From Candidatus Levyibacteriota bacterium (GTDB lineage Bacteria; Patescibacteriota; Microgenomatia; Levybacterales; UBA12049), in assembly GCA_963716145.1 (NCBI GenBank), contig OY970292.1, positions 12,104 to 76,103 on the forward strand: 64,000 nt of DNA, written 5' to 3'. The notes beneath the pieces were generated by a model. That model worked only from the letters and a program-made list of their open reading frames with translations, did no database searches and had not been told where the DNA came from. Shown here one piece after another: positions 5,060 to 62,782 of the stretch. Position 1 is the stretch's first letter. Each line of letters begins with the position of its first letter. Made by a program: the position numbers and the translations under genes.

Positions 5060-5062
5060 GAC

Positions 5063-5100
5063 AATTTGAAATTTTCAATTTAAAATTTGAAATGAAATAT
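5063..5100. repeat. Heptamer-periodic AT-rich palindromic repeat (TTTGAAA/TTTTCAA family)
   Basis: The sequence is aatttgaaattttcaatttaaaatttgaaatgaaatat, with 7-nt periodicity. TTTCAAATTTGAAA-type palindromes recur at 5491-5527, 13966-14001, 16418-16464, 16548-16570, 36865-36889 and 59976-60003. Confidence 0.5.
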
Positions 5101-5490: not shown

Positions 5491-5527
5491 ATTGAAAACT
5501 GAAAATTTCAAATTGAAAATTTTATTT
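5491..5527. repeat. Heptamer-periodic palindromic repeat copy
   Basis: The sequence is attgaaaactgaaaatttcaaattgaaaattttattt. With 5063-5100 it flanks the four-helix-bundle gene on both sides. Confidence 0.45.
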
Positions 5528-14029: not shown

Positions 14030-15448
14030 ATGAAAGATAAGAAAAGAACTCTAGCAAAAGATACCCCAAAAGAAGTCGGTAAAGAAATTAAGATTCAGGG
14101 TTTTGTTCAGGCACGCCGTGACCACGGAAAACTAATCTTCATAGATCTTCGGGACTGTTCCGGTTTGGTTCAAGTTGTGTTTAATCCCCGGGTTTCTGAA
14201 AAAGCACATAAAGCGGCAAGTACCCTCAGTACTGAGTCGGCAGTTTCAATTACAGGTTTGGTCAAGCCCCGCCCTGAAAAATTGATTAATCCCAAGCTGG
14301 CAAGCGGAACTGTCGAGATAGAAGCAACAGATGTTGAGATTTTGGCAATAGCTGATACTCTACCATTTGATATGGGGACAGATGTACTGAATCTGGAACT
14401 CCCGACTCTTTTGGATCATAGATCTTTGACGCTGAGACACGAAAGCGTCCAAAAAATATTTATAGTGCAAGCAGCATTGATTGAAGAATTCCGAAAAGCC
14501 GCTCAGGAGTTGGAGTGCATTGAGGTAGTTGTTCCTACAATCGCGGCTGGAGCGACTGAAGGCGGATCTGAAGTTTTCAAGATTGACTATTTTGATCATA
14601 AAGCATTTCTTACTCAAAGTCCTCAACTCTATAAGCAAATTATGGTAAGTGTTTTTGAGCGTGTTTTTGTAATTACCAAAGCTTATAGAGCCGAGCCTTC
14701 AGTTACCACCCGCCACTTGACCGAAGCAACGCAAATGGATGTTGAAATGGCTTTTATAGAGAGTTTTGATGAACTGCTTGACGCATTGGAGTTTGTAGGA
14801 ACCGCAATGATCAAAAACGTTGCCGGAAAATATGAAAGTATTTTGAAGGATTTTAAAATTGATCAACCATTAGTTCCAACTAAAGTACCGCGCCTCACAC
14901 TTAAAGAAGCGCAAAAAATAATAACAGACCGGACGGGGCGTGATCTTTCAAAAGAGCTTGATCTAAATCCTGAAGATGAACGGGAGATATGTGCTTGGGC
15001 CATAGAAAAACATCAGTCTGATTTTGTCACAATCACTCATTTTCCGACAAAAAAGCGTGCTTTTTACAGCATGCCGGATCCCAAAAATCCCGAATACAGT
15101 CTGACTTATGATTTATTGTTTAGGGGGCTTGAGATGATGAGTGGGGCTCAGCGCATTAACGACTATGAACAACTGATAAAAGCAATGAAAGCAAAAGACG
15201 TAGATCCTGCGAATTTTGGGATGTACATGCAGGCATTTAAATACGGTATGCCTCCTGAAGGAGGGTTTTCATTTGGGCTGGAAAGACTTACAATGAAATT
15301 ACTGGGCTTGGAAAACGTACGGGAAGCATCACTTTTTCCAAGAGATATGGAGCGCATTGATGAAAGATTCTCAAAATCAACAGAAAAAGACCCTTCGATT
15401 GGCTCAGGGCAAGAGAAGGTTCTTCAAAAGGGCAAGAATAAAGAATAA
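14030..15448 (+). CDS. aspS: Aspartate--tRNA ligase, archaeal/eukaryal type (class IIb)
   Basis: N-terminal OB fold (IKIQGFVQARRDHGKLIFIDLRD). Motif 2 is AYRAEPSVTTRHLTEATQMDVEMAF. Motif 3 is GGFSFGLERL. 472 aa with a short Lys-rich C-terminal tail. Confidence 0.75.
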   Translation: MKDKKRTLAKDTPKEVGKEIKIQGFVQARRDHGKLIFIDLRDCSGLVQVVFNPRVSEKAHKAASTLSTESAVSITGLVKPRPEKLINPKLASGTVEIEATDVEILAIADTLPFDMGTDVLNLELPTLLDHRSLTLRHESVQKIFIVQAALIEEFRKAAQELECIEVVVPTIAAGATEGGSEVFKIDYFDHKAFLTQSPQLYKQIMVSVFERVFVITKAYRAEPSVTTRHLTEATQMDVEMAFIESFDELLDALEFVGTAMIKNVAGKYESILKDFKIDQPLVPTKVPRLTLKEAQKIITDRTGRDLSKELDLNPEDEREICAWAIEKHQSDFVTITHFPTKKRAFYSMPDPKNPEYSLTYDLLFRGLEMMSGAQRINDYEQLIKAMKAKDVDPANFGMYMQAFKYGMPPEGGFSFGLERLTMKLLGLENVREASLFPRDMERIDERFSKSTEKDPSIGSGQEKVLQKGKNKE

Positions 15449-16430
15449 AGAATTAAGAATTAAGGAGAAAAAAACCTTACCTCTTAATTCTAACGTCTTG
15501 CTTCTAAGAAAACACGAATCAAATTTAATATTTATCCTTATTCCTCTAATTCTGCTGATTATACTTTATGCAGTATATTTATTTAATTCGAGTGTTTCCC
15601 TGAGTATTCAAAAAAACAAACTTATTGCATCAACTGATACGGCTTTTACGCCTTATCCTATTGTCCTGAATTCATATCAACCGATTTTGTCTTCAAAAGC
15701 TGCAATTGTAACCGACGCTGACTCCCAGACAATTCTTTTTTCCAAGAATCCTGCTTTGCGGTTTTCAATGGCATCAACCGCCAAGATCATGACCGCATTA
15801 ACGGCACTTGATTATTATCAACCTGATTCGATTATTACTATAAAATCAGGTTTTGTGGAGGGATCAGGTCTCAATTTGCAAGTCGGGGATAGATTTTATT
15901 TTCCGGATCTTCTTTACGCCATGCTTCTTCCCTCAGCCAATGATGCAGCAGCAGCAATTGCGGACAATTATCCGGGAGGGAAAGAAGAATTTGTCGCAAA
16001 AATGAATGAAAAGGCGCAAGTCTTACATCTTACAGATACGCATTTCTCAGATCCTGTGGGAATTGATGACGATGGAAACTACTCAACAGTTGTTGATTTG
16101 GCGAGACTTTCGTCCTCCGCAATGAAAAATAAGATATTCGCACAGATTGTCGCGACCAAGCAAAAAACTATAAATAATGTTGACAGCGCTCATCCTTATA
16201 TTCTTTTTAATCTTAATAAGCTTTTGGGTATTCAGGGAGTAAATGGTATAAAAACAGGAACTACAGAAGGCGCCGGAGAGGTTCTTGTCACCTCAGCAAT
16301 TGTGAATAATCATACTTTTATAATTGTGGTGATGAATAGTCAGGATAGGTTTGGAGATACTAGTCTGCTTCTTGATTTCATTGCTAACAATATAGAGTTT
16401 GTTAATCCCCCATCGCTTGAAAATTTTTAA
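15357..16430 (+). CDS. dacA: D-alanyl-D-alanine carboxypeptidase (S11, PBP5-like serine hydrolase). The true start is probably downstream of 15357.
   Basis: SxxK (ASTAK), SxN (PSANDAA) and KTG (IKTGTT) motifs. N-terminal TM anchor. The ORF-track start overlaps aspS by 92 nt, so the start is uncertain. Confidence 0.65.
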   Translation: MMKDSQNQQKKTLRLAQGKRRFFKRARIKNKELRIKEKKTLPLNSNVLLLRKHESNLIFILIPLILLIILYAVYLFNSSVSLSIQKNKLIASTDTAFTPYPIVLNSYQPILSSKAAIVTDADSQTILFSKNPALRFSMASTAKIMTALTALDYYQPDSIITIKSGFVEGSGLNLQVGDRFYFPDLLYAMLLPSANDAAAAIADNYPGGKEEFVAKMNEKAQVLHLTDTHFSDPVGIDDDGNYSTVVDLARLSSSAMKNKIFAQIVATKQKTINNVDSAHPYILFNLNKLLGIQGVNGIKTGTTEGAGEVLVTSAIVNNHTFIIVVMNSQDRFGDTSLLLDFIANNIEFVNPPSLENF

Positions 16431-16464: not shown

Positions 16465-16510
16465 ACTAAATGTTTAAAAATTAAAACATTGTGATTTGAT
16501 TGAAAATTGT

Positions 16511-16547
16511 CCATTCGACAAGCTCAGGATCCTGAGTGTATCGAAGG
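16511..16547. repeat. Nested-hairpin repeat element (TTCGA-CTCAG-loop-CTGAG-TCGAA family), intergenic copy
   Basis: In ccaTTCGAcaagCTCAGgatcCTGAGtgtaTCGAAgg the inner and outer stems are perfect inverted repeats. It is homologous to the purU and DUF1801 leader elements. Its first 19 nt recur at 61185-61203. Confidence 0.5.
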
Positions 16548-16569
16548 AAAAATTTCAAATTGAAAATTA

Positions 16570-20130: not shown

Positions 20131-20201
20131 TAATATTACCGAGTCGCCCGCCTCGACTCGCAGTCGCTTGTCGACGCGAGGCGGGTCTAATGGTAGGACA
20201 A
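20131..20201 (+). repeat. Duplicated 5' half of tRNA-Gln (pseudo-tRNA fragment with 6 nt of 5' flank). It is interrupted in the D-arm by a 39-nt perfect palindrome.
   Basis: taatatTACCGAGTCG[cccgcctcgactcgcagtcgcttgtcgacgcgaggcggg]TCTAATGGTAGGACAA matches positions -6..27 of the intact tRNA-Gln at 20453, except for the inserted hairpin (CCCGCCTCG...CGAGGCGGG). Confidence 0.5.
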
Positions 20202-20203
20202 AA

Positions 20204-20449
20204 ATGAAATATACAGTCTATGTTCTTTCTAGCTTAAGCACCCCTAAAAGTTATGTTGGATATACTGATAATCTAGATCGAAGACTTGGGGAACACAATT
20301 CGGGGAAAAACAATTATACACAAAAATATAAGCCTTGGAAGGTTGTGCATACAGAATCATTTAAGTCTATGGAGGAAGCAGTAGGAAGAGAAAAATATCT
20401 TAAATCAGCAAGTGGAAGAAAGTTAGTGCTAAAAAAATTATTTACTTAA
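20204..20449 (+). CDS. GIY-YIG nuclease-domain protein (small free-standing, about 81 aa)
   Basis: MKYTVYVLSS...KSYVGYTDNLDRRLGEHNSG...W contains the GIY..YIG..R..EH core. The start was set to the Met at 20204, since the ORF-track start at 20168 lies inside the pseudo-tRNA. The ORF ends 3 nt before tRNA-Gln. Confidence 0.7.
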   Translation: MKYTVYVLSSLSTPKSYVGYTDNLDRRLGEHNSGKNNYTQKYKPWKVVHTESFKSMEEAVGREKYLKSASGRKLVLKKLFT

Positions 20450-20452
20450 TAT

Positions 20453-20526
20453 TACCGAGTCGTCTAATGGTAGGACAACAGATTCTGGATCTGTTTATTG
20501 GGGTTCGAGTCCCTGCTCGGTAGCCA
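20453..20526 (+). tRNA. tRNA-Gln (anticodon CTG), with encoded CCA
   Basis: Manual fold. Acceptor TACCGAG/CTCGGTA. D-stem GTCT/GGAC. Anticodon stem ACAGA/TCTGT with loop TTCTGGA. T-arm TGGGG-TTCGAGT-CCCTG. Discriminator G, then CCA. Confidence 0.8.
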
Positions 20527-26730: not shown

Positions 26731-26740
26731 AGCCACATGA

Positions 26741-26811
26741 TTCTTCGGCTCTGCTCAGGCCATCGGCTCTAGGGCTCAGGCTCGAAGAGATCATATTGAG
26801 TTTATCGAAAT
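26741..26811 (+). promoter_or_regulatory. Structured 5' leader / nested-hairpin repeat element upstream of purU
   Basis: The sequence is ttcttCGGCTCTgCTCAGGCcatCGGCTCTagGGCTCAGGCtcgaagagatcatatTGAGTTTATCGAAatATG. It has an internal direct repeat CGGCTCT..GCTCAGGC x2. Its 3' part, cata(c/t)TGAGTTTATCGAA(g/a)tATGaa, is shared with the leader at 45240-45281. Confidence 0.4.
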
Positions 26812-27663
26812 ATGAAAAATACAGCGACTCTTCTTATCAGTTGCCCTGATGCTAAAGGGATTGTGGCAAATGTCGCGAACTTTTTGTATGAACACAACGC
26901 GAATATTCTCCATGCTGATGAACATCAGGATAATGAAAAAAAGTTGTTTTTTCTTCGTACCGAGTGGGACCTGACAGATTTTTCAATAAGCAGAAAAGAT
27001 TTTGAAAAATTATTTGGTCCGGTTGCAAAGAAATTTAAAATGGAATGGAAAGTAAAATACTCAGCTGATAAATTAAATACAGCGATATTTCTTTCAAAGG
27101 AGGATCATTGTCTTGCGGATTTATTATACAGATATAAAAATAATGAAATTCAAAGCGACATTAAATTGATTGTAAGTAATTATCCAAACGCCAAAGAAAT
27201 TTCAAAGTTTTATAATATCCCATTTTACGAAATCTCAAGTACGAAAAATAAAGTAGATGATGAGCAAAAAATACTTTCGCTCCTCAGTAAAAATAATATC
27301 GAATTGGTAATACTAGCAAGATACATGAAAATTCTTTCCTCTGAATTTATTCAGGAATTTGGAAATCCGATTATAAATATCCATCACTCTTTCTTGCCCT
27401 CATTTGTCGGCACCAAGCCTTATCATCAAGCATATGACAGGGGAGTCAAGATTATCGGCGCCACTGCTCACTACGTTACGGCAGAGCTGGACCAAGGTCC
27501 GATAATTGACCAGGATATTCTGCGTATTTCTCACAGGGACAGTATTGATGATTTGGTGCAAAAAGGAAAAGATATTGAAAAGATTGTTCTCTGCCGAGCA
27601 GTTAAATCACACACCGAAAATCGTATATTAACTTACGCAAATAAAACGGTTGTGTTTGATTGA
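26812..27663 (+). CDS. purU: Formyltetrahydrofolate deformylase
   Basis: N-terminal ACT domain, then a formyl-transferase core: IINIHHSFLPSFVGTKPYHQAYDRGVKIIGATAHYVT. Confidence 0.85.
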   Translation: MKNTATLLISCPDAKGIVANVANFLYEHNANILHADEHQDNEKKLFFLRTEWDLTDFSISRKDFEKLFGPVAKKFKMEWKVKYSADKLNTAIFLSKEDHCLADLLYRYKNNEIQSDIKLIVSNYPNAKEISKFYNIPFYEISSTKNKVDDEQKILSLLSKNNIELVILARYMKILSSEFIQEFGNPIINIHHSFLPSFVGTKPYHQAYDRGVKIIGATAHYVTAELDQGPIIDQDILRISHRDSIDDLVQKGKDIEKIVLCRAVKSHTENRILTYANKTVVFD

Positions 27664-34752: not shown

Positions 34753-36436
34753 TATCCTTTATCTTCAGCTGCAGTTTGGTGTTGCCGTTCCAGGTGTTGT
34801 TATCAATAGTATAAGCAATAGATATTTTATCACCCGTTTTAAGTTTGATAGCATGTTCTGAAAGTCCAAAACCGATAGCGTCAATTGTTTGGGAATCTGA
34901 TTGTTCGAGCACAAGTTTTAAATGACTTTTATCTTTTCCAAGAAGTTTGAAATCCTTAACTTCAACATCGTGACTTACAAATGTGGGCTCGGGATTTCCC
35001 ATGCCAAAAGGCGACAGCGCTTGTAGGTCATTATACAATTCTGGATTGATTGTAGAAATAGGCAGCTCGCAATCTACTTTCAATTTCCTTTCCAACATTT
35101 CAGTTGTCAAAAGCTGCGCAGCTGAATCTTCAAGTAATTTTTGAAGTTTGGCAAGATTTTCTGTGGCGACACTAAAGCCTGCTGCCATAGGATGACCGCC
35201 AACGTTTATAAATTCACTAGTATGAAGCCTTAGAAATTCGATTAGATTAAATCCACTTACTGATCTTGCTGATGCTTTACTCATTCCCCCCCCAATTGAA
35301 ATAACAATTGCCGGTTTATAATACTCTTCAACCAGTTTTCCGGCAACAAGGCCTATCACTCCCTGCTGATAGGATTCGTGAGCAACAAACAACAAACTTT
35401 GAACTTTGAACTTCGCGTCCTGAGCTTGCCGAATGGATGAACTTTGAACTGTTTGGATTGCGTGTTCGGTTGCTTCACGCAAAACCAACTGCCGTTCTTT
35501 ATTGATCAATTCCAGTTTTTCAGCTAAGGCTTTTGCTCTTTTCGGATCTGTTGTACACAAAAGTCTGAGGCTATCCATTCCGGATTCTATCCTGCCTGCT
35601 GCGTTTAGGCGCGGGGCAATAATATATCCAACCTCATAGGGCGTAAATTCTTCTTTTTCCAATCCTGCTTGTTTGAATAATTCCTGAAGTCCAAGCCTTT
35701 TTGTTTTGCAAATTTTTGACAGTCCGTGTTTGACAATAGTTCTGTTGGCATTCGTTAGCGGTACCATATCGGCGATTGTACCCAGAGCTGCCAGCTCCAG
35801 ATGACTATCGTCATCAACTTTGAACTTTGAACTTTGAACTTTGAACTCCTTCGCAAGAAGATAGGCAACCCCTGCCCCGCAGAGTTTGGTTGTGTGAACT
35901 ATAGCGTGAGCCTTGGGTAAAGTATCTGAGGGGACATGGTGGTCTGTGATGATCACATCAATCCCCTGCGCGTTTGCAAAGTCTATTGCTTCATTCGCGA
36001 CGATTCCATTATCATCAGTAATTATTAGCTTTGTATTTGGAATTTGTAATTGGATATTTGAAATTCCTTTCACAGAAAGGCCGTAGCCTTCTTCAATTCT
36101 ATGGGGAATATGAGGAAGTATTTTTGCACCTAGCGTATGGAGTGTCTCCCAAATAATTGCTGCTCCAGTTATTCCATCTACATCATAATCACCAAAAACC
36201 ACTATTTGCTCCTGGTTTTTGATTGCTTTCTGAATTCTTTTGACTGCTTTTGCAAGCTGTTTTTTGTCAATCCCGACACTTTCAACAGTTACAGTATCAA
36301 GCTTGGGATTAAGAAAACTTTCCTTCTCTTTTTTGTTTTTAATTCCGCGGTTATCAAGAAGTAAATCAATAAGCTGTTCGTTTTTGATTTTTGATTTTTG
36401 ATTTTTGATTTTATTTACGATATTCCATGTTTTCAT
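34742..36436 (-). CDS. recJ: Single-stranded-DNA-specific exonuclease RecJ
   Basis: DHH (FGDYDVDGITG ... ITDHH) and DHHA1 motifs. 564 aa. It contains in-frame heptamer tandem repeats; see findings. Confidence 0.85.
   Translation of the reverse strand: MKTWNIVNKIKNQKSKIKNEQLIDLLLDNRGIKNKKEKESFLNPKLDTVTVESVGIDKKQLAKAVKRIQKAIKNQEQIVVFGDYDVDGITGAAIIWETLHTLGAKILPHIPHRIEEGYGLSVKGISNIQLQIPNTKLIITDDNGIVANEAIDFANAQGIDVIITDHHVPSDTLPKAHAIVHTTKLCGAGVAYLLAKEFKVQSSKFKVDDDSHLELAALGTIADMVPLTNANRTIVKHGLSKICKTKRLGLQELFKQAGLEKEEFTPYEVGYIIAPRLNAAGRIESGMDSLRLLCTTDPKRAKALAEKLELINKERQLVLREATEHAIQTVQSSSIRQAQDAKFKVQSLLFVAHESYQQGVIGLVAGKLVEEYYKPAIVISIGGGMSKASARSVSGFNLIEFLRLHTSEFINVGGHPMAAGFSVATENLAKLQKLLEDSAAQLLTTEMLERKLKVDCELPISTINPELYNDLQALSPFGMGNPEPTFVSHDVEVKDFKLLGKDKSHLKLVLEQSDSQTIDAIGFGLSEHAIKLKTGDKISIAYTIDNNTWNGNTKLQLKIKDIKI
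35816..35849. repeat. (TGAACTT)4 heptanucleotide tandem repeat inside recJ
   Basis: aactt tgaactt x4 encodes EFKVQSSKFKV on the minus strand. A related (ACTTTGA)2.5 with (AACAAAC)2 lies at 35383-35413. (TTTTTGA)4 lies at 36381-36412 in the recJ N-terminus. Confidence 0.6.
36381..36412. repeat. (TTTTTGA)4 heptanucleotide tandem repeat at recJ codons 9-18
   Basis: tttttga x4 tttta encodes KIKNQKSKIKN on the minus strand. The repeat is 28 nt long, not a multiple of 3. Confidence 0.6.
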
Positions 36437-36482: not shown

Positions 36483-37856
36483 ATGATTGATAAAATACCA
36501 CCTCACATTCTGGAGATTGTTAAAAAGTTTGAAAAAGCCGAATTTGAAATTTATCTAGTCGGTGGATCAGTGCGGGATTTACTTAGTAAGCGGGTTGTCA
36601 CTGATTGGGATTTGACTACCAATGCACAGCCTTCGGAAATGCTCAAGCTTTTTCCTGATTCTGTTTATGAAAATACCTTTGGAACTGTTGGGATTAAAGT
36701 TGAAGAGCTTGCGGAAACGGAACACAAAGGAATAGTTGAGGTAACAACATATAGAACAGAGAAAGGTTACTCAGACCGCAGGCATCCGGAAAAAGTAGAA
36801 TGGGGAAAAACAGTTGAAGAGGATCTTGGAAGACGCGATTTTACGGTGAATGCAATGGCATTGAAAATTTCAAATTTCAAATTTCAAATTTCAAATGACT
36901 TGATAGATCCCTTTGATGGGCAGACTGATTTGAAGAATAAAATCATACGGGCTGTGGGGGATCCGGCTAAGAGGTTTAAGGAAGATGCTCTCCGGCTTAT
37001 GCGGGCGATCCGGTTTGCTTCGCAGCTTGGTTTTTCGATTGAAGAAAATACGTTAAAAGAAATTGCAGCTGATGCGTCTCTGCTTTCGGAAATTGCCAAA
37101 GAGCGTGTGCGGGATGAGCTGCTAAAAATTCTCGCAAGCGATTTTCCATATGAGGGAATAATACTTTTGAAGAACACAGGTTTGATGCAGCAAATTATTC
37201 CTGAACTAATTGAAGGAATTGGGATTTCGCAGTCCCGTCCGGGCAGGCATCATACAGAGGATGTATTTACTCACAATGTTTTGTCGCTCAAATTCACTCC
37301 GTCTACTGACCCGATTGTGCGCTTCGCGACTCTGATTCACGATATTGGTAAGCCGCGCGTTGAAAGTACGGACGATGCTGATTTGGTGATATTTCACAAT
37401 CATGAAATTGCTGGAGCCAGGATTGCCCGGGATTTGGCAGACCGTTTGCGCTTTTCAAAAAAAGAGCAGGAAAAGATAGTAAAACTCGTCAGATGGCACA
37501 TGTTCACAGTGGACGAACGCATTACTGATAGCGCGGTCAGGCGGTTTATCCGGAGAGTTGGCGTTGAGAATGTCAAAGACATGATGGATTTGAGAGTTGG
37601 TGATCGGCTTGGCGGTGGAACTCAGACTGCTGAGTCATGGAGGTTAAAACTTTTTAAAAATAGGCTTGAAGAGCAGCTCGCCCCGGCCCTTTTCTCGATA
37701 AATGATCTGGCAATTGATGGGAATGATATTATGAAAGAGCTGAAAATGAAGCCCGGCCCGGAGATTGGGAAGATTTTGCAAAAGTTGTTTGAAGAAGTGG
37801 ATGAGGATTTGGAGAAGAATAATAGGGAGTATTTGTTGAAGAGAATTAAGTCTTGA
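36483..37856 (+). CDS. cca: CCA-adding tRNA nucleotidyltransferase (PolyA_pol head + HD domain)
   Basis: YLVGGSVRDLL...DWDL nucleotidyltransferase motif. A C-terminal HD domain (HD..K..H..E). Start at the ATG at 36483. Confidence 0.8.
   Translation: MIDKIPPHILEIVKKFEKAEFEIYLVGGSVRDLLSKRVVTDWDLTTNAQPSEMLKLFPDSVYENTFGTVGIKVEELAETEHKGIVEVTTYRTEKGYSDRRHPEKVEWGKTVEEDLGRRDFTVNAMALKISNFKFQISNDLIDPFDGQTDLKNKIIRAVGDPAKRFKEDALRLMRAIRFASQLGFSIEENTLKEIAADASLLSEIAKERVRDELLKILASDFPYEGIILLKNTGLMQQIIPELIEGIGISQSRPGRHHTEDVFTHNVLSLKFTPSTDPIVRFATLIHDIGKPRVESTDDADLVIFHNHEIAGARIARDLADRLRFSKKEQEKIVKLVRWHMFTVDERITDSAVRRFIRRVGVENVKDMMDLRVGDRLGGGTQTAESWRLKLFKNRLEEQLAPALFSINDLAIDGNDIMKELKMKPGPEIGKILQKLFEEVDEDLEKNNREYLLKRIKS
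36865..36889. repeat. (AAATTTC)3 heptanucleotide tandem repeat inside cca
   Basis: aaatttc x3 aaatg encodes KISNFKFQISN. It has the same core as the intergenic palindromic repeats and the 60006 gene start. Confidence 0.6.
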
Positions 37857-40947: not shown

Positions 40948-40985
40948 TAGTTCGATAAACTCACTACAAGTTTACACAAAATAAT

Positions 40986-41738
40986 ATGGAAAAAATAGTT
41001 CCCATAATACCAATCAGAGACGGCATAATATTCCCCAGTACAGATTCAGTCCTTACATTTGGGCGTCCCAAGAGTTTGGCAGCGCTGGAATCCGCCTTTC
41101 AAAAAGAAAGAATAGTCTGCTTTGTGCTCCAAAAAAATGCAAGATTAAATGATCCAACTCCAGAGGATCTGCATACAGTGGGCACACTTTCCCGGATTGA
41201 GAGAATGATAAAGACAGATGGAGAAATTAACGCTCAGGTCAAAGGATTGGCGCGGGTTGAGATACTTTCCTATGAAAGACATGATTCATATTTCATGGCC
41301 AAGGTGCGTGAGATTCCGGAAATTTTTGAAGAAACAGAAGAAATAAAAGCACTTTGTAACCACTTAACCAATGAATTCAGAAAAGCTATGAATTTCGGCA
41401 AATCGGCTGACTTTTTGCTTTTTATGAATATCATGTCTGAGAATACTCCTTCAGAGTTGGCGGATCTTGTGGCTTCGGCACTTACCATTAAACCTCAGGA
41501 GAAGCAGGAGCTGCTTGAGATAATCGACGTCAAGATAAGGCTTGTGAAAATTACCGAGCTTCTTGCAAAAGAAATTAAAATTTTGGAACTGGAACGCAGA
41601 ATAGCCTCAAAAACTCAGGAAAGATTCGAAAAAGGCGCGCGAGAGGCAATGCTTCGGGAAAGACTCAGAACAATTGAAGAAGAACTTGGCGAAAAAGAAG
41701 AAAATTCAGAAACCCGAACAGCTTTTGAACAAAATTAA
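40986..41738 (+). CDS. lon: Lon protease, N-terminal LON substrate-binding domain (frame-shifted from the rest)
   Basis: [17 protein letters not shown]... N-domain. The ORF ends at ...EELGEKEE in an A-rich tract. The true protein continues in frame 1. Confidence 0.8.
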
Positions 41739-43356
41739 AGAAGCCAAAATGCCTGAGGATGTTGAGGAAAAAGCAAAGAAAGAGCTTGGAAAGCTTCAGA
41801 ACATGAATCAGTTCAATCCTGAAGCCGGCTATATCCGCAACTATCTGGATTTGATGGTTGCTCTTCCTTGGAATGTTGAGAGCAACGATGTTGCCAATAT
41901 TAAATCCGCTGAAAAAATTCTTGATGAAGATCATTATGGATTGCAAAAAGCCAAAGAAAGAATTGTTGAGTATCTGGCAGTGCACAAATTGTCAGGGAAA
42001 ATGAAAGGGCCTATTCTTTGTTTTGCAGGCCCTCCCGGAGTTGGTAAGACTTCAATCGGGAAATCAATTGCCCATGCGCTTGGACGTAAATTTGTCCGTG
42101 TTTCATTGGGAGGAATTAGAGATGAGGCAGAAATCAGAGGGCACAGAAGAACTTATGTCGGAGCATTGCCCGGAAGAATTCTGCAAGGAATAAAGGATGC
42201 AGGAACCAAAAATCCAGTATTCATGCTGGATGAGATTGATAAAGTCGGATCGGATTTCAGAGGCGACCCATCCTCAGCACTTCTGGAAGCACTTGATCCC
42301 GAACAAAACGGTCAATTCTCCGATCATTATCTTGAGGTACCCTTTGATCTTTCAAATGTGATGTTTATCACAACTGCAAATGTATTGGACACAATTCCAC
42401 CGGCCCTCAGGGACCGCTTGGAGATTATAAATTTTGCAGGATACACTCATGATGAGAAATTCAAGATAGCTCATGATTTTCTTCTCAAAAAACAGCTTGA
42501 AAATCACGGATTGAGTGCTGGTAAAGTTGAAATTACGGATGACGCTCTTAAATTTATAATTCACCATTATACCCGTGAAGCAGGGGTAAGAAATCTGGAG
42601 CGGACAATTGCGACAGTTTACCGAAAAGTTGCCAAAAAGGTCGCGGAAGGCGAAAAAGCAAAGATTACCGTAAAGTCGACCGATATTCAAAAATATCTTG
42701 GCCCGATTAAATTTACGAGCACGATGATTGAGAAGAAAGACGAAGTCGGTATGTCAACAGGTCTTGCCTGGACTGAGGCAGGAGGGGACATTTTGTTCAT
42801 TGAAGTAGCTTTAATGCCTGGAAAAGGAGTCTTGACTCTGACCGGACAGCTGGGAGATGTGATGAAAGAATCCGCTCAAGCAGCACTTTCATATATCCGC
42901 TCAAAGGCACATCTTATGGGCATTTCCGATAAAACTTTTCAAAAAACAGATATTCACGTTCATGTTCCTGAGGGTGCTGTTCCCAAAGACGGACCATCAG
43001 CAGGAGCTGCCATAACTACGGCAATTGTCTCAGCGCTTACCAAAACTCCTGTTCACCGCAAGGTCGGGATGACGGGGGAAGTTACACTTAGAGGCCGTGT
43101 TTTGGAAATTGGCGGTTTGAAGGAAAAAGTAATTGCAGCTCACCGTGCAGGACTTAAAACAATAATTGTTCCAAAGGAAAATAAGAAAGACCTTGAAGAT
43201 GTGCCAAAAGAGGTATTAAATGATTTGAGCTTTAAATTTGTTACAAATATTGATGAAGTGCTTGAAATTGCTCTTACCAAACCTTTGCCCAAACCAAGAT
43301 CCGCGGATGGAGCTATTTCCGAGCAGCCGGTTCTTCACGCACCAATGGCCTCATAA
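41674..43356 (+). CDS. lon: Lon protease, AAA+ ATPase and S16 protease domains (continuation of 40986)
   Basis: Walker [10 protein letters not shown]. Catalytic [14 protein letters not shown]...(K). The Met at 41674 is not a real start. The junction [19 protein letters not shown] matches the Lon linker. Confidence 0.85.
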
Positions 43357-45113: not shown

Positions 45114-45212
45114 ATGTTTAGATTTATAATGAGTTTAAAGAAAATCTTTAAGTCATTTTTGGTTCTTCTACTACTCTTCTTTATATTCCCTACGCCAGCT
45201 CATGCTCATTGA
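45114..45212 (+). CDS. Signal-peptide-only mini-ORF (32 aa); a possible remnant
   Basis: MFRFIMSLKKIFKSFLVLLLLFFIFPTPAHAH* is a complete Sec signal peptide with an AHA cleavage site and nothing after it. Confidence 0.15.
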   Translation: MFRFIMSLKKIFKSFLVLLLLFFIFPTPAHAH

Positions 45213-45239
45213 AACATCTGATATAATTTGGCTATGACC

Positions 45240-45277
45240 CTTCGATTGCACTCAGGGTCATACTGAGTTTATCGAAG
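45240..45277 (+). promoter_or_regulatory. Nested-hairpin leader element immediately upstream of the DUF1801 gene
   Basis: CTTCGATtgcaCTCAGggtcataCTGAGtttATCGAAGtATG has a 7-bp outer stem and a 5-bp inner stem. It is preceded by the extended -10 TGaTATAAT at 45219-45227. Confidence 0.45.
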
Positions 45278-45278
45278 T

Positions 45279-45635
45279 ATGAAGAAAGCAAAAGACGTTG
45301 ATGAGTATATTTTAAGTGCACCTAAAGAAATGCGGGCAAAGCTTAATGAATTGCGCGCTGCTATAAAGTCTGCTGCTCCAAAGGCTGAGGAAAAACTTAG
45401 CTATGGTATGCCATACTACAGTTATAAAGGGCGATTGGTTTATTTCGGATTCGCAAAAAAACATATCGGTCTTTATCCGATGCCTCCGATAACTCAAGAG
45501 TATGCAAAAGAACTTAAGAAGTACCAAACAGGCAAGGCGACAATCCGCTTGCCAATGGACGAAAAACTGCCACTAGGTCTTATAAAAAAAATGGTTAAAG
45601 CTAGGGTTAGATATAATGAAGAGGCGAAGAAATGA
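45279..45635 (+). CDS. DUF1801 (YdhG-like) domain protein
   Basis: 118 aa. The MPYYSYKGRLVYFGFAKKHIGLYP block is typical of DUF1801. Confidence 0.6.
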   Translation: MKKAKDVDEYILSAPKEMRAKLNELRAAIKSAAPKAEEKLSYGMPYYSYKGRLVYFGFAKKHIGLYPMPPITQEYAKELKKYQTGKATIRLPMDEKLPLGLIKKMVKARVRYNEEAKK

Positions 45636-48022: not shown

Positions 48023-49036
48023 TTATTTTGAATGCTTTGCCAGATGCGCTAAGTGTCTCTGCTTTTCCTCTTCGAATTTACTGAAATCGGTTTCATGTTT
48101 CTTAATCAACGTCGCAGCATACTCCGCACCTAGGTAATGGGGCATTACAACATATGAAGCCCCTGCATCATACAACTGCTTGGTCTCTTTTACAAAATGC
48201 GAAAGCACAATTACGACTGCTTTTTTATTAACCTGCCTAATTGTATTTACCAAAATCATACTGGTTTTAAATCCTTGAATTGTAGAAACACATATCTCGA
48301 TTTGGGAAAGATTGATATCCTGAAGGAACTCTATGTCCTGCGCATCACCATATTTATATGGAATCTCCAGTTTTTTCAGTCTTTGTATAGAATCAGGGTT
48401 AAAATCAACAACTAAAAAACTTTTTTCCAATTTTTGGAAAGCTTTAAGAAAATTCTCACCGACTCTACCATAACCAAATAATATAGCATTGTATTTATCC
48501 TCTTTTCCCAAAAGTTGTCTGGGATTATCGAGTTCCAGTAATTTCAATAATTTCTCAACCCTTTTATAAATATTATCCGCGTAATTTAAAAAGTATGTTG
48601 AACCAGCAATAGTAATTAAGCCAACTATGGTAATTATCGATAAAACTTCTTTAGAAATATGTCCAACACTATATCCAAGAGATGCGAGAATAAGTGAAAA
48701 TTCGCTAATCTGAGCAATCGCAAGTCCGGTCATAAATCCCGTTCTTCGTCTGTGTCCGAGAATACTCATAAGGATAATTACAATTACCGGATTACCGATC
48801 AATACAAAGACTGATAGGATTAACGATGGAATAATAATCCGTGAAATATTATCCATAGCCACTTGCGATCCCAAAAGAATGAAAAACAAAACTATGAAAA
48901 AGTCCCGTAGAGGCTTTAAGCGGGAGCCAATTTCGTAAGAAAATGGAGTGAGCGAAAGAGTAACTCCTGCAACTAGCGCACCTATTTCCATAGAGAGACC
49001 AAGTGAATAAAATATAGATGCTAGTCCGAGGCCCAA
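48023..49036 (-). CDS. kefB: Kef-type K+/H+ antiporter, C-terminal membrane segments plus the RCK/TrkA-N domain (frame-shifted from the N-terminal part)
   Basis: ILFGYGRVGENFLKAF...VVDFNP is the Rossmann GxGxxG of TrkA-N. It continues the TM topology of 49021-49716. Confidence 0.7.
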   Translation of the reverse strand: MGLGLASIFYSLGLSMEIGALVAGVTLSLTPFSYEIGSRLKPLRDFFIVLFFILLGSQVAMDNISRIIIPSLILSVFVLIGNPVIVIILMSILGHRRRTGFMTGLAIAQISEFSLILASLGYSVGHISKEVLSIITIVGLITIAGSTYFLNYADNIYKRVEKLLKLLELDNPRQLLGKEDKYNAILFGYGRVGENFLKAFQKLEKSFLVVDFNPDSIQRLKKLEIPYKYGDAQDIEFLQDINLSQIEICVSTIQGFKTSMILVNTIRQVNKKAVVIVLSHFVKETKQLYDAGASYVVMPHYLGAEYAATLIKKHETDFSKFEEEKQRHLAHLAKHSK

Positions 49037-49716
49037 GTGAGCGAGAAGAGCATAAGTACTTCCTGAGATGAGGCTATAAATCGGGTCGCACGAGGGATGA
49101 TATAAATTCCAACAATAAATAGAATAAGGAGGATCACAACTGCCTTTATAAGAAGTAGTCCAATTACCGTTAGCATATCAGCTGAAGGTGACTTTGAAAA
49201 AGACGAAACCAAGAGCAGAATGATGGTTGCGACCACATCTTGTACGATCAAGAACCCTATTGCTATTTTCCCATATAGCTTATTTAGATCTCCCCTGTCT
49301 GAGAGCAACTTCAAGACAATTATGGTGCTACTAAAAGTGAGAGCAATCGCGACATACATCGCGGCAATCCGGTCTATGCCTAAAAATATCGCGATTGAAA
49401 AACCAATAATAGTCGTGAAGATAATCTGACCCAGCCCGCCGAAAAGCGAAACCTTGCCGACTTCCTTAACAACTCTTGGACTGAGATTCAAACCTACTAT
49501 AAATAGTAGGATTGTAATTCCAATTTTTGAAAAGAGCTCAATCTGCTCGCTCGAGTGAAGAATATTAAAAAAGCCAGGGCCTGCTACAATTCCAGCTAAA
49601 ATATAACCGACAACTAGTGGTTGTTTCAACGTACGCATTACAACCGCTGAAGCTGTTGCGATAAATAGCAAGAAGGATATCTCTAAAAATATTTCCATAT
49701 ATTTAGTGTACAACAC
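49021..49716 (-). CDS. kefB: Kef-type monovalent cation:proton antiporter (CPA2), N-terminal membrane domain
   Basis: Na_H_Exchanger family TM pattern (GYILAGIVAGP). It overlaps the next ORF by 16 nt in another frame. Confidence 0.7.
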   Translation of the reverse strand: MLYTKYMEIFLEISFLLFIATASAVVMRTLKQPLVVGYILAGIVAGPGFFNILHSSEQIELFSKIGITILLFIVGLNLSPRVVKEVGKVSLFGGLGQIIFTTIIGFSIAIFLGIDRIAAMYVAIALTFSSTIIVLKLLSDRGDLNKLYGKIAIGFLIVQDVVATIILLLVSSFSKSPSADMLTVIGLLLIKAVVILLILFIVGIYIIPRATRFIASSQEVLMLFSLTWASD

Positions 49717-59217: not shown

Positions 59218-59976
59218 GTGAGCAATGTTTTTCTCTCCGTTGTTATCCCTTGCTTTGACGAAATGGCAAATCTGCAAAAGGGTGTTCTGGATCACGTCTC
59301 GCGTTTTTTGGATGAAAAAGATTTTTCCTACGAAGTAATCATAGTTGATGACGGATCGACTGACGGAAGCATGGAATTTATCGAAAAGTATATAAAAAGA
59401 AACGTCAAAATTTCTCTTACCAAAAATCCCCATTATGGAAAAGCCGGAGCCGTAACAACCGGTATGCTTGAATCTCATGGACGCTACCGCCTTTTTACCG
59501 ACATGGATCAGGCGACCCCGATTGAGGAGCTAGATAAATTACTACCATTTCTTCAAACTGGAGAATATGATATCGCAATCGGTTCCAGAAAAGACAAAAG
59601 AAAAGGTGCGCCCGCAATCAGGTTATTTGTCTCAAGAAGCGCAATAGTTCTACGAAAGTACGCGATCGGTATTAAGGAAATCTCAGATACTCAGTGCGGC
59701 TTCAAACTTTTTACAAATGAAGCAGCAGACACACTTTTTACTAAATACAAAAAGTTTAATAATAATTTTACTGAAATAACCGGTGCAGCAGTGACATTCG
59801 GTTCTGATATAGAAATATTGTATATGGCGCAAAAAATGGGCTATAAGATAAAAGAAGTTCCGGTTAACTGGCTTTTTGTTGAGTCGCGAAGAGTGAGCCC
59901 GATTAAAGATTCGATACAAGGCGTAATAGATCTGGTCAAAATTAAAAAGAACGCAATGGCGGGAAAGTACGATTAA
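59218..59976 (+). CDS. GT2 polyprenyl-phosphate glycosyltransferase (Dpm1/ArnC/GtrB-like)
   Basis: VVIPCFDE...IIVDDGSTDGS...DMD...GSR are the GT2 DXD and catalytic motifs. 252 aa with no TM, typical of soluble CPR Dpm1-like enzymes. Confidence 0.75.
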   Translation: MSNVFLSVVIPCFDEMANLQKGVLDHVSRFLDEKDFSYEVIIVDDGSTDGSMEFIEKYIKRNVKISLTKNPHYGKAGAVTTGMLESHGRYRLFTDMDQATPIEELDKLLPFLQTGEYDIAIGSRKDKRKGAPAIRLFVSRSAIVLRKYAIGIKEISDTQCGFKLFTNEAADTLFTKYKKFNNNFTEITGAAVTFGSDIEILYMAQKMGYKIKEVPVNWLFVESRRVSPIKDSIQGVIDLVKIKKNAMAGKYD

Positions 59977-60003
59977 AATTTCAAATATCCAATATCAAAT
60001 TTC
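59976..60003. repeat. Heptamer-periodic repeat (AAATTTC/AAATATC) immediately 5' of and overlapping the 60006 start codon
   Basis: aaatttc aaatatc caatatc aaatttc aaATGac. The cca internal repeat ends in the identical tttcaaatgac. Confidence 0.45.
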
Positions 60004-60005
60004 AA

Positions 60006-61220
60006 ATGACAAAAAGTTTTAAATTGAACATTTCAATAGGGATATATTTTGTTGTTATTTTTTTCCTATTTCTATATTCTTTTACGCAAATAGATTTAAG
60101 TCTTACATTTTCAAGGATCACGGTTTTGCGAAATCTAGTAACCTCTTTTCAGCAAATAGGTTACTTCAATCGTCCGCTTTCAATGTATATTTACATAGGT
60201 CTTCTTATTTTGCTATATGGTTTTTATTTTTATTTCCTCAAACTATCGCTTGAGAAAAAGATTAGCAAAAAAACTGTTTGGAAAATATTGATAGCTTCTT
60301 CTGCGATTTTGGTCTTTTCCTATAATGCTTTTTCTTACGATTTATTCAATTATATTTTTGACGCCAAGATATTTACTCACTATCATTTAAATCCTTATGT
60401 TCATAAAGCGCTGGATTTTCCCGGAGATCCAATGCTTTCTTTTATGCGCTGGACTCATAGAGTCTATCCTTATGGTCCTATTTGGCTTCTTCTGACAGTC
60501 CCATTATCTTTTATTGGTTTTAATTTTTTTCTTCCCACCTTTTTTATGTTTAAAATTTTGATGGCAGCCAGTTTTCTTGGAAGCTTGTGTTTTATCGGGA
60601 AAATTCTGCAAAAAACAACGCCCAATAAAGAAATTTTTGGTTTAGTCTTTTTCGGATTAAATCCATTGGTAATTATCGAATCTTTGGTCAGCGGGCATCT
60701 GGATATCGTGATGGTTTTCTTTGCCCTCTGGGCAACTCATAAATTAGTAGAAAAAAAATACGCGTTACCATTTTTGTTATTAGCTCTTTCAACTGGGATT
60801 AAGTTCGGGACAATTTTTCTGCTTCCTATTTTCATCTATATTTTATTTTTGCAAAAGAAGAAAAAATCAGTTGATTGGGATTTGATTTTCAAGACTTGCA
60901 CCATAGCAATGGTTATTACTGTTTTTCTATCATCAACTTACAGCGGTAATTTTCAACCTTGGTATCTTGTTTTACCTTTAGCTTTTGCAGTGTTTATATC
61001 CAGACGATATTACATTTTCATTCCTTGCATTATTATTTCATTTTTTGCTTTGCTCATGTATCTACCTTTCTTATATCTCGGAAATTGGGATAAGCCTGTG
61101 CCGCAGATTCTGTGGAATTTACAGATTAGTTCAATGATATTATCATTTATTGCAGTTTTGGTTTATTATTTAAACCTAAGCCATCCATTCGACAAGCTCA
61201 GGACGCGAAAGCACAAATAA
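60006..61220 (+). CDS. Polytopic membrane protein, putative GT-C glycosyltransferase (DUF2029/GT87-like)
   Basis: About 11 TM. Its 3' end (codons for HPFDKLRTRKHK) is formed by a copy of the 16511 repeat element. Confidence 0.4.
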   Translation: MTKSFKLNISIGIYFVVIFFLFLYSFTQIDLSLTFSRITVLRNLVTSFQQIGYFNRPLSMYIYIGLLILLYGFYFYFLKLSLEKKISKKTVWKILIASSAILVFSYNAFSYDLFNYIFDAKIFTHYHLNPYVHKALDFPGDPMLSFMRWTHRVYPYGPIWLLLTVPLSFIGFNFFLPTFFMFKILMAASFLGSLCFIGKILQKTTPNKEIFGLVFFGLNPLVIIESLVSGHLDIVMVFFALWATHKLVEKKYALPFLLLALSTGIKFGTIFLLPIFIYILFLQKKKKSVDWDLIFKTCTIAMVITVFLSSTYSGNFQPWYLVLPLAFAVFISRRYYIFIPCIIISFFALLMYLPFLYLGNWDKPVPQILWNLQISSMILSFIAVLVYYLNLSHPFDKLRTRKHK

Positions 61221-61250: not shown

Positions 61251-61631
61251 ATGAATTTTATTAAAAAGTATTCATTTTTCATTTTCTTGATTGGAATTAT
61301 TGTACTCTACCTTTTCACGCGTCTTTCTAGTATTTTGTCTCTTCCGATCTTTACAGATGAAGCTATCTATGTCCGCTGGTCGCAAATAGCAAGCAATGAT
61401 GCTAACTGGCGCTTTATCTCACTAACTGATGGCAAGCAGCCTATGTTTGTCTGGATTGCGATGATACTTCTAAAATTTATTAAAGAGCCTCTGCTTGCGG
61501 GAAGACTGGTATCAGTTGGAGCAGGATTTGCATCATTAGTTGGCATATTTTTTCTGACGAGTGAGATCTTTAACCCTTCGGCCCACTCAGGGCAAGAAAG
61601 CTCGGTATTCTGGCGAGTTCGCTCTACGTAA
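61251..61631 (+). CDS. ArnT/PMT-like (GT39/GT83) glycosyltransferase, N-terminal part (frame-shifted)
   Basis: IFTDEAIYVRW...DGKQPMFVW is the canonical GT-C N-terminal DE motif region. The frame breaks at a CCC run near 61571. Confidence 0.6.
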   Translation: MNFIKKYSFFIFLIGIIVLYLFTRLSSILSLPIFTDEAIYVRWSQIASNDANWRFISLTDGKQPMFVWIAMILLKFIKEPLLAGRLVSVGAGFASLVGIFFLTSEIFNPSAHSGQESSVFWRVRST

Positions 61632-61687: not shown

Positions 61688-62782
61688 ATGTTTATGATAT
61701 GGGCATTGTACTTTGAAATCCGTTTGGCCAGAAAACCACACCTGGATCTTGCCATGATTCTTGGGATGATCATGGGCGCCGGGATGTTAACAAAGACCAG
61801 TAACAATTTTGCGTTCATACTGCTGCCTTTCTCGTTACTATTATTTAATTTCAAAGATAAGAAATGGAAGCATAACCTAAAGAGTTGGATAATTTTCGCA
61901 GCAGTGTCCATAATTATTTCCCAAGTGATGTATGCAATACTGAGACTCTCGCCGTTTTTTCATATAATTGGTGAAAAAAATCTGACTTTTATATATTCAT
62001 TCAAGGAAATATTACAAGACCCCTTTAGTCATCTGCTGGGAAACTTAAAAGGTCTATTGACCTGGCTCGTTGAGTATGTAACAGCGCCATTTATTATTCT
62101 GGTTATTTCTTCATTTTTGATTGGTAAAAAATATTTCAATGAAAAACTTCTGCTTCTGATCTGGTTTCTGGCTCCATTTACGGCTCTTGCGCTTTTTGGG
62201 AAAGTAATCTATCCGCGATTTATTTTTTTTATGACAATGCCTCTTCTCGTAATGGGATCATACGCGCTCTACAACATGTATAATCTATCAAAAAAAACTT
62301 ATCTAAAAGCATTGGTTATTTTAGTTTTTCTTGGGACATTCATATTGAATGATTTTTTAATACTTACCAATTTTGCAAAAGCTCCGATTCCTCAATCTGA
62401 CAAAAGTCAGTTGTTAGAAAGTTGGCCTTCCGGGGTTGGCGTAAAAGAAACGGTTAATTTTTTGCAGCAAAAGTCGAAAGAAGGGAAAATTTATGTAGGG
62501 ACTGAGGGAACCTTTGGGCTGATGCCTTATTCCCTGGAGATTTATTTAAAAGATAATAAAAATATCACCACAAAAGGTTTTTGGCCGATTAACGATACTC
62601 CACCAAAAGAAGCTGTGGAATCAGCGAAGGAAATACCAACATATTTTGTATTTTATCAACCATGTCCATCTTGCCCTACAACAGGTATTGCACCAAAACC
62701 ATGGCCGGTAAAGCAAATTTTTCAGATCCCAAAACCTGAAAAAGACAGTTATTACACACTGTATCAACTAAATCCACAATGA
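61688..62782 (+). CDS. ArnT/PMT-like glycosyltransferase, continuation of 61251 in frame 2
   Basis: Frame 2 is open from 61574 (PFGPLRARKLGILASSLYVIF...) and continues the TM topology. The C-terminal soluble domain follows. Confidence 0.6.
   Translation: MFMIWALYFEIRLARKPHLDLAMILGMIMGAGMLTKTSNNFAFILLPFSLLLFNFKDKKWKHNLKSWIIFAAVSIIISQVMYAILRLSPFFHIIGEKNLTFIYSFKEILQDPFSHLLGNLKGLLTWLVEYVTAPFIILVISSFLIGKKYFNEKLLLLIWFLAPFTALALFGKVIYPRFIFFMTMPLLVMGSYALYNMYNLSKKTYLKALVILVFLGTFILNDFLILTNFAKAPIPQSDKSQLLESWPSGVGVKETVNFLQQKSKEGKIYVGTEGTFGLMPYSLEIYLKDNKNITTKGFWPINDTPPKEAVESAKEIPTYFVFYQPCPSCPTTGIAPKPWPVKQIFQIPKPEKDSYYTLYQLNPQ

Follow-up and report, generated by a model that had tools for sequence, protein, structure and literature searches.

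Within the 64,000-nucleotide stretch of the Candidatus Levyibacteriota bacterium genome analyzed here (hereafter the window; contig OY970292.1, positions 12,104 to 76,103), eight loci carry copies of one family of short structured repeats. The copies lie between two convergent genes, at the start codons of purU and of a DUF1801 gene, in the 5' leader of lon, in frame within recJ and aspS/asnS, in the tail of a GT87-like membrane protein gene and near the 3' end of a short open reading frame (ORF). They comprise two inverted doublets, one 75-nt complex form and five 24-nt singles (Table 1). The window has a G+C content of 38.8% and is dense in 7-nt tandem arrays, and the named relatives of its RecJ protein come from Levybacteria, Roizmanbacteria and Patescibacteria, which places the genome in the candidate phyla radiation, most likely in Microgenomates. 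The heptamer arrays had pointed to Nostocales, but a cyanobacterial origin was rejected because of these RecJ relatives and because HIP1 occurs only 3 times in the window. Taken as a whole, the data are best explained if these copies belong to a family of very small non-coding mobile DNA elements, a conclusion that we consider probable.

Copies in the window and the unit they share

A first-pass annotation of this DNA had claimed four copies, namely three nested hairpins and one half-copy. All of these lay where it had placed them and they proved to be real, but the count rose to eight loci with the addition of a recJ copy of the shared 19-mer (35418-35436) and the singles at 15391-15414, 40948-40971 and 61574-61597. 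The half-copy at 61185-61203 was exact and, as had been proposed, falls within the final codons of the gene whose end is at 61220. The recJ copy of the 19-mer is on the minus strand, carries one mismatch and is read in another frame than the copy at 61185. The single at 61574-61597 has the same type of stem and tail as that at 15391-15414.

These copies are far in excess of expectation for the window. The motif CTCAG-N3-12-CTGAG occurred three times (0.25 expected; 0 of 100 shuffles reached 3), the core TGAGTTTATCGAA with up to 2 mismatches occurred 12 times (2.9 expected; 0 of 100 shuffles), and the 19-mer with up to 3 mismatches was found three times (0.02 expected), a count that no shuffle reached. 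A covariance model of the single unit, R1, recovered 10 units at the 8 loci in 64 kb and far fewer units in ~77 kb from four relatives. RNA folding returned the nested stems of the first-pass annotation as the minimum-energy structure, with energies of -16 to -17 kcal/mol (z = -2.4 to -3.8); the doublet between the convergent genes folded at -17.1 kcal/mol (z = -3.8).

The module common to all copies is a conserved box of 13-15 nt, L = TTCGAYnnn(n)RCTCA, closed by a stem of 3-8 bp whose sequence is free but complementary. It is found as 24-nt singles (stem of 3, L of 13, stem of 3 and a tail of 4 or 5 nt), as inverted doublets of 39-45 nt and in longer nested forms, and the elements span 24-75 nt. 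We aligned 148 single units and found that 63.9% of the cells in the closing stem were paired, as compared with 50.0% in shuffled and 30-46% in slid alignments. The covariation score of the stem was 0.407 versus 0.182 in shuffles, and none of 500 shuffles reached the observed value. The same stem columns alternated among C-G, U-A, G-C and A-U, and G-T pairs also occurred. At the positions of L and of its complement L' that our search pattern left free, the two boxes of a doublet were independent of each other (e.g. C/G, 57 observed versus 59 expected), which ruled out L:L' pairing as a selected helix. Because the stems covary and the box arms are independent, the basic unit is a box of conserved sequence presented by a stem that varies, and the nested hairpin is two such units set back to back in opposite orientation.

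This result changes the meaning of the two perfectly paired stems described in the first-pass annotation. The inverted repeats are present, but they represent two opposed boxes whose arms vary independently, and it is the stems formed with flank and centre that covary. Likewise, the proposed formula TTCGA-N-CTCAG-loop-CTGAG-N4-TCGAA describes 16514-16545 and 45241-45276 well but does not extend to 26741-26811, where the left arm reads TTCGG, the right inner arm reads TTGAG and there is an internal duplication. The latter constitutes a separate variant of 75 nt, and a relative has a homologue of it.

An exact pattern scan of one genome per species yielded 123 doublets from at least 120 loci, and these followed one plan. 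A box L is paired with its complement L', the sequence preceding L complements the start of the centre between them, and the sequence following L' complements the end of the centre. A contiguous match of at least 5 nt between the upstream flank and the end of the reverse complement (rc) of the centre was present in 44% of the 123 doublets versus 3.4% after random re-pairing; for the downstream flank, the corresponding values were 37% and 3.9%. In 45 of the 123 doublets, the upstream and downstream matches overlapped by 1-8 nt, and the doublet therefore reads target-s-L-s'-rc(target)-s2-L'-s2'-target. Thus, a target of 4-5 nt is present three times, in the left flank, inverted in the centre and at the right end. 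Nearly all of the centres differed among the 123 doublets, yet they matched their own flanks.

A second architecture was seen at six loci from Binatia and Chloroflexota (L002, L007, L069, L071, L078 and L092), which have a conserved centre, GGACAGGCYC, and outer flanks that pair with each other over up to 15 nt, giving one long palindrome instead of two hairpins. We also observed further short conserved box repeats, e.g. ..gccacgcttcgctcgcaatgaca.., and degenerate fragments of the L box near some doublets (L037, ~200-260; L126, 1310-1410; L010, 480-640), which suggests that these three genomes hold a larger set of small repeats.

Empty and filled sites in relatives

Orthologous sites were compared with those of relatives that share ~72-77% protein identity with the window. 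Clean pairs of empty and filled sites were found for six window loci: two sites in recJ, and one each in aspS, the lon leader, purU and DUF1801. At array 2 of recJ, relative L121 is filled with exactly TCCATTCGGCAAGCTCAGGACGCG (24 nt) and the array of the window is uninterrupted; the ends are unambiguous and there is no duplication. At array 3, the window is filled and L121 is empty, and the 24-mer of L121 in array 2 is identical to that of the window. The 8 extra residues of the window RecJ protein were missing from 25 of its 29 closest homologues. Inserts that are likewise short but differ in sequence occupy this position, in other frames, in three further homologues, and one of these, LHSASSGR, looks like the same box in another frame as judged from the peptide. 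This linker is an insertion hotspot: among the RecJ homologues P0078, P0089, P0013, P0014 and P0017, some have a whole GIY-YIG domain (PF01541) within RecJ, and others have short inserts at the linker (LHSASSGR, LPADRQG, SFKTSDLA).

In aspS, the insert is CCCTTCGATTGGCTCAGGGCAAGA (24 nt, 8 amino acids), which is missing from the orthologues in L208 and L209 and has a boundary ambiguity of 2 nt. The lon leader contains a ~24-nt insert with the box that is missing from the otherwise alignable leader of L121. For purU, empty sites were found in two relatives, reading TTTGGTATAATGCGTTTATGAAAAATACAGC in L209 and TGCTATAATAGGGGGATGAAAAACACAGCC in L126. The relatives have a -10 box followed by 6 nt and ATGAAAAA, and the window has the same -10 box, 6 nt, ATGA, 75 nt that end in ATGA, and then AAAATACAG. 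For DUF1801, the empty site of L123/L124 is TTGATATAATTTAATTATGAAACTT; the relative reads TGATATAAT-TTAATT-ATGAAAC, and the window reads TGATATAAT-TTGGCT-ATGA followed by 45 nt that end in TATGA. An independent Logan assembly, L122, was identical to the window base for base at the DUF1801 locus; therefore, an assembly artefact was ruled out. At eno, L208 is filled with an 88-nt homologue of the purU element of the window, directly after the ATGA of the start codon, and L209 is empty.

The 24-nt singles were inserted without duplication, or with the 2-nt boundary ambiguity at aspS, and both doublets and singles were polymorphic between relatives. The doublet between the convergent genes was uninformative in this comparison because the relatives lack any spacer there: in L208 and L209, the same two genes lie ~6 nt apart or overlap, and the whole spacer is specific to the lineage of the window. 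Since relatives have empty sites where the window is filled, and the reverse, our results indicate that the element is mobile. The suggestion of a mobile structured repeat resembling REP or MITE sequences was thereby borne out, with precise empty and filled sites in relatives and the box at no fewer than 120 loci.

The start-codon subfamily and its genomic setting

Elements with the centre TCATA form a subfamily that was always located directly after (T)ATGA at the start of a gene. Five of them could be aligned together (those of purU, DUF1801 and eno in L208, and those of L040 and L072), and a nested copy in L031 is the sixth. Each of the five is preceded by a -10-like box and ATGA, and ends in RTATGA, which opens an ORF of 118-300 codons. 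Centres of the TCAA type recurred in several other Patescibacteria genomes, with TTGA on both flanks, within heptamer arrays. The first-pass annotation had correctly placed the two leader copies of the window between an extended -10 box and the ATG, and had observed that their conserved 3' end runs into the start codons of unrelated genes. This arrangement was confirmed, but it arose by insertion after the original ATGA, with a second (T)ATGA at the right end of the element, and not by evolution of a leader upstream of the gene.

In ~20 of 60 window genes, 5-8 nt separate a TATAAT-like -10 hexamer from the start codon (e.g. 34147, 46008, 50275, 58043, 61251), and motifs resembling a Shine-Dalgarno sequence are scarce at gene starts. 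Because of these two features, leaderless mRNAs are seemingly common in this genome, and the sequence pattern suggests that they are widespread in the Patescibacteria host. The distance from the -10 box to the first ATG at DUF1801 is of the same geometry as in the ~20 other genes. At both purU and DUF1801, the old start codon now appears to open a short upstream ORF (uORF), whose translation is predicted from the reading frame. Insertion would have placed a short 5'-terminal uORF ahead of a gene that was leaderless before, and purU and DUF1801 would then probably be expressed via termination-reinitiation or unfolding of the hairpin. Such an effect on the leader would be a consequence of the insertion and not the reason why the element exists.

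Table 1. Repeat copies and associated start-site features in the window. R1, score against the covariance model of the single unit; L and L', box and its complement.
Feature	Position	Strand	Sequence or layout	Setting	R1 (bits)
Inverted doublet	16510-16548	+	TCC-A-TTCGACAAGCTCA-GGA / TCC-TGAGTGTATCGAA-GGA	Between convergent 3' ends of a PBP5-like gene (ends 16430) and a 375-amino-acid gene (ends 16570); in AT-rich heptamer-like repeats	26.9 + 27.3, one per strand
Complex 75-nt element	26741-26815	+	L 26744-26757, duplicated box segment, TCGAAGAG, centre ATCATAT, L' 26797-26809, second ATGA 26812-26815	purU start; right after ATGA 26737-26740 of the old start codon; second ATGA is the present purU start	
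Inverted doublet, 45 nt	45238-45282	+	CCC-(L 45241-45254)-GGGTCATAC-(L' 45264-45276)-G-TATGA (45278-45282)	After TATGA 45233-45237; right-end TATGA holds the DUF1801 start, 45279	32.3 + 26.8
24-nt single	15391-15414	+	CCC-TTCGATTGGCTCA-GGG-CAAGA	In frame in C-terminal tail of aspS/asnS, adds DPSIGSGQ; (AAGAATA)n array 20 nt downstream	23.7
24-nt single	35414-35437	-	TCC-A-TTCGGCAAGCTCA-GGA-CGCG	In frame in recJ, adds SSIRQAQD; inside (GTTCAAA)n array	
24-nt single	40948-40971	+	TAG-TTCGATAAACTCA-CTA-CAAGT	lon 5' leader, between TGTGATAGAT and ATG 40986; exact boundaries by manual realignment	14.4
24-nt single	61184-61207	+	TCC-A-TTCGACAAGCTCA-GGA-CGCG	Bulk of the last 12 codons (..PFDKLRTRKHK, stop) of the GT87-like membrane protein gene, 60006-61220	22.2
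24-nt single	61574-61597	+	CCC-TTCGGCCCACTCA-GGG-CAAGA	Near 3' end of ORF 61251-61631	15.4
Predicted uORF at purU	26737-26772	+	Old start codon and 10 codons (MILRLCSGHRL), TAG stop	In frame with purU	
Promoter-like site of purU	ends 26730		TTCATA-16 nt-TATAAT	6 nt before the uORF ATG	
Predicted uORF at DUF1801	45234-45266	+	MTLRLHSGSY, TGA stop inside L'	In frame; ends 12 nt before the DUF1801 ATG	
Extended -10 box	45219-45227		TGATATAAT	6 nt upstream of the DUF1801 uORF	

Several other features of the window were recorded. Perfect 7-nt arrays of 4.4-4.6 copies lie at 35816-35847, 36381-36412, 36865-36896, 15434-15464 and 59976-60007, among others; several are within coding sequences, e.g. 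recJ, where they encode peptides of the KIKNQKS- and KFKVQSS-type, and the 24-nt modules insert preferentially into such arrays. A second copy of the 5' portion of tRNA-Gln (true gene, 20453-20526) lies at 20132-20201 and is broken by a 39-nt GC-rich palindrome, CCCGCCTCG...GCTTGTCGACG...CGAGGCGGG, which holds the box-like GCTTGTCGA. A small ORF with a GIY-YIG-like motif (~20205-20449) lies between the two tRNA-Gln copies, and the region 20131-20526 looks like a mobile nuclease gene inserted at tRNA-Gln. AT-rich tandem repeats of 14 nt, at 5062-5088 and 5496-5522, flank the gene of a 23S rRNA intervening-sequence protein (PF05635, 5103-5465).

Some genes were found in pieces. The lon gene is in two overlapping ORFs, the N domain at 40986-41738 and the rest at 41674-43356 (assigned by synteny with L121), and it is fragmented in L121 too. 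A Na+/H+ exchanger gene is likewise in two parts, 49021-49716 and 48023-49036. Both splits could reflect frameshifts, pseudogenes or programmed events. Finally, a gap of 56 nt separates the ORF 61251-61631 (126 amino acids), in which a 24-nt module lies close to the end, from the downstream ORF 61688-62782 (no Pfam match), and the two may be one interrupted membrane protein gene.

Distribution, explanations and known systems

The loci, numbering 120 or more, came from more than 15 phyla among the matches listed, all of them records of metagenome-assembled genomes (MAGs) or single-amplified genomes. Taxa among these matches included many Patescibacteria lineages as well as Omnitrophota, Acidobacteriota, Binatia, Chloroflexota, Planctomycetota, Verrucomicrobiota, Nitrospira, Zixibacteria, Dadabacteria, Desulfobacterota and others, and their G+C contents ranged from 31 to 71%. 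Viral contigs gave 2 matches in 2.9 million, which is about chance level by a rough size estimate, and a phage origin was rejected. A search of Rfam at the gathering threshold with the window and 18 loci returned tRNAs only, and a search of 45180-45320 at E values up to 10 gave chance-level matches only. Likeness to the hammerhead or other small ribozymes, to a tRNA T-loop or D-loop and to the 23S peptidyl-transferase region was considered from the box sequence and dropped, as the core motifs did not fit. Literature searches with box strings, box peptides, heptameric repeats, SDR citations and repeats of the candidate phyla radiation found no description of the family, although an earlier description may exist outside the literature searched.

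How such elements would move is a matter on which we can offer only a tentative proposal, one that we hold with distinctly less confidence than mobility itself. The elements may be moved in trans as folded single strands by an enzyme that recognizes the conserved box. The centre would act by base pairing, as a guide to both the target and the element's own right end, similar to the recognition of cleavage sites in IS200/IS605 and REP systems. Insertion would then occur 3' of a matching tetramer or pentamer with no true duplication, and an altered centre would retarget the element. This proposal would account for the constant match of flank, centre and right end.

Several observations weigh against this proposal or against mobility as such. 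A guiding centre leaves the 24-nt singles unexplained, because nothing in them complements their flanks and yet they are polymorphic. The recJ sites lie 380 nt apart in identical heptamer arrays, and therefore gene conversion could move the recJ copy. The empty sites could be precise excisions instead, and a true duplication of the target site, with the centre created upon insertion, could account for the additional (T)ATGA. No transposase, HUH, reverse transcriptase or integrase domain was present in ~50 proteins of the window, which covers 64 kb of a 1.14-Mb genome, and a crude signature scan of 1.28 Mb of retrieved DNA, including that of the loci, revealed no IS200- or RAYT-like protein.

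The duplication just mentioned belongs to an alternative that we consider rather unlikely, in which a staggered cut duplicates the 4-5-nt target and insertion itself generates the inverted copy in the centre. In one version, each 3' end would receive a box hairpin, fold back and copy the overhang, after which the ends would re-anneal via their complementary tails. Filled sites do have one (T)ATGA more than empty sites, in size and layout the first half of a doublet (s-L-s'-5 nt) corresponds to a 24-nt single, and such a process would give what was seen in the 123 doublets, centres that nearly all differ and still match their own flanks. However, the singles were inserted without duplication, and in the purU and DUF1801 elements the match of the centre extends over 6 nt with the right-end copy but over only 4-5 nt with the pre-existing left flank. 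Furthermore, the centre types TCATA and TCAA recur across genomes and genes, as expected for inherited guides and less so for random targets. It is more doubtful still that the elements spread via an RNA intermediate, which for the start-codon subfamily would mean a switch of template at the 5' AUGA of leaderless transcripts. In support of this, each of the six ATGA elements is situated exactly at the predicted 5' end of a leaderless mRNA, and the stems contain G-T pairs; an RNA intermediate was reportedly also proposed by Elhai et al. for the cyanobacterial SDR elements. In contrast, the ~50 window proteins included no reverse transcriptase, copies face either way relative to genes and also lie between convergent genes, and integration would need homology on the promoter side, which is not there.

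An equally improbable alternative is that the hairpins are primarily a cis-regulatory RNA, i.e., a riboregulator or translational leader of purU, DUF1801 and other genes. The start codon does lie in the 3' strand of the hairpin, a centre able to pair upstream or downstream would make a bistable design, and one subfamily is always at gene starts. This role had also been offered in the first-pass annotation, but our results did not uphold it. The elements matched no Rfam family even at E = 10, orthologous leaders in relatives are without the element, and the genes downstream are unrelated. The copies are found in both orientations, between convergent genes, in gene tails and within coding sequences in different frames, and the box arms do not covary; an effect on translation remains a prediction from sequence. 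We consider it very improbable that the polymorphisms arose from slippage and from recombination or gene conversion between heptamer arrays instead of transposition. Several copies adjoin heptamer arrays and the two recJ sites have identical (GTTCAAA)n flanks, but the copies in aspS, the lon leader, purU, DUF1801, eno and the GT87 tail share no common flanking homology. At most, array recombination accounts for the recJ pair.

A more detailed picture can be drawn for the mobile elements, although in its entirety it is conjectural and somewhat less likely than the guide proposal by itself. In this picture, the family would consist of protein-less 24-45-nt modules shared across phyla, with the box as an enzyme handle and the centre as a programmable guide, and in Microgenomates a (T)ATGA lineage would home to leaderless starts at the first four bases of the gene, duplicating the start codon and installing a 5'-terminal uORF. 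If this picture holds, the elements would rank among the smallest guide-directed mobile elements known and would represent a natural rewiring of leaderless translation. A conserved loop box that crosses phyla in a triple-target doublet and the homing to start codons of leaderless genes both appear not to have been described before.

Patescibacteria genomes are ~1 Mb in size and are thought to be streamlined. Nevertheless, 64 kb of such a genome hold 8 recent insertions of a 24-75-nt element, including some in frame in recJ and aspS and at two start codons. That one 13-15-nt box recurs in MAGs from more than 15 phyla among the matches listed implies a widespread, unrecognized mobilizing activity or host factor. 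Translation of the box directly yields FDKLR, RQAQG, PELVEG and LSLSKG, which accounts for these peptides, which we take to be recurrent spurious words in predicted proteins of metagenome assemblies; for these phyla, the box should be masked in gene calling and in alignments. Should the centre prove to be a guide, the family would offer a minimal model of sequence-programmed insertion. The start-codon subfamily provides a direct test of the tolerance of leaderless mRNAs to a 5' uORF. The weight of the finding lies in the breadth of the family and in its targeting of start codons, and is tempered by the lack of an enzyme or mechanism found.

We compared the family with known small repeats. REP sequences are defined by conservation of the stem, a short loop and a terminal GTAG or CGTC tag (PMC3733652), and REP/REPIN elements are abundant, non-autonomous, short palindromic repeats that occur as singles and as inverted doublets forming a long hairpin, and are associated with RAYT transposases (PMC3116915, PMC3733652). 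Singles and inverted doublets, the latter folding into a long hairpin, are likewise found in the window family, where both types are polymorphic. However, in this family the 13-15-nt loop is conserved and the stems vary and covary, there is no GTAG or CGTC tag in the flanks, and no RAYT gene was seen in the 64-kb window or in the crude signature scan of 1.28 Mb. Moreover, REPs are extragenic, whereas the window elements are also present in frame within genes. MITEs are 70-300 bp in length and have terminal inverted repeats that match a parent IS and duplications of defined size (PMC3733652). Similar to MITEs such as Correia/NEMIS, RUP and Nezha, the window elements are non-autonomous, lie beside genes and alter leaders, but the modules are 24-45 nt, the singles lack duplications and no parent IS was seen.

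IS200/IS605 elements, in the work of Barabas 2008 and Guynet 2009, are said to insert 3' of a specific 4-5-nt target without duplication and to use single-strand hairpins; their cleavage sites are reportedly read by pairing with an internal guide, and their targets are reportedly reprogrammable. The singles described here are without duplication, and the target of a doublet recurs at the right end, where it is either element-borne or duplicated. Of the pairing scheme, the complementarity of centre and flanks is the part that the sequences of the window family display. Unlike in IS200/IS605, no TnpA was found, a single central guide would serve both ends by Watson-Crick pairing, and the element is 10-20 times smaller. 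Rickettsia palindromic elements (RPEs), yeast mitochondrial GC clusters and byp elements are small palindromic mobile sequences of AT-rich reduced genomes that are tolerated in frame in genes. RPEs, however, are 100-150 bp, GC clusters differ in sequence and duplicate their targets, and none of these elements has the box.

The family most similar to the window elements is SDR of Nostoc and relatives. As reportedly described by Elhai et al. 2008, SDRs are modules of 21-27 nt without coding capacity, in a hairpin context with compensatory changes; they are said to be often found in tandem heptameric repeats, with nested insertions and a precise short target, and to be essentially limited to one cyanobacterial subgroup. 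The window family has five singles of exactly 24 nt, within the SDR size range, and copies in heptamer arrays (recJ; 15391 near (AAGAATA)n; L023 in (GAAATTT)n and (ACTTTTG)n), as well as nested copies in L031 and purU. In contrast to SDR, likened here by description only, the box is found in Patescibacteria and more than 15 other phyla among the matches listed. SDR5 inserts between nucleotides 3 and 4 of HIP1 (PMC4390886), whereas HIP1 is rare in the window, where it occurs only 3 times. To our knowledge, neither the triple-target doublet nor the targeting of start codons has been described for SDR. SDR is the closest kind, and the window family would at most be a new and far wider family of the same kind.

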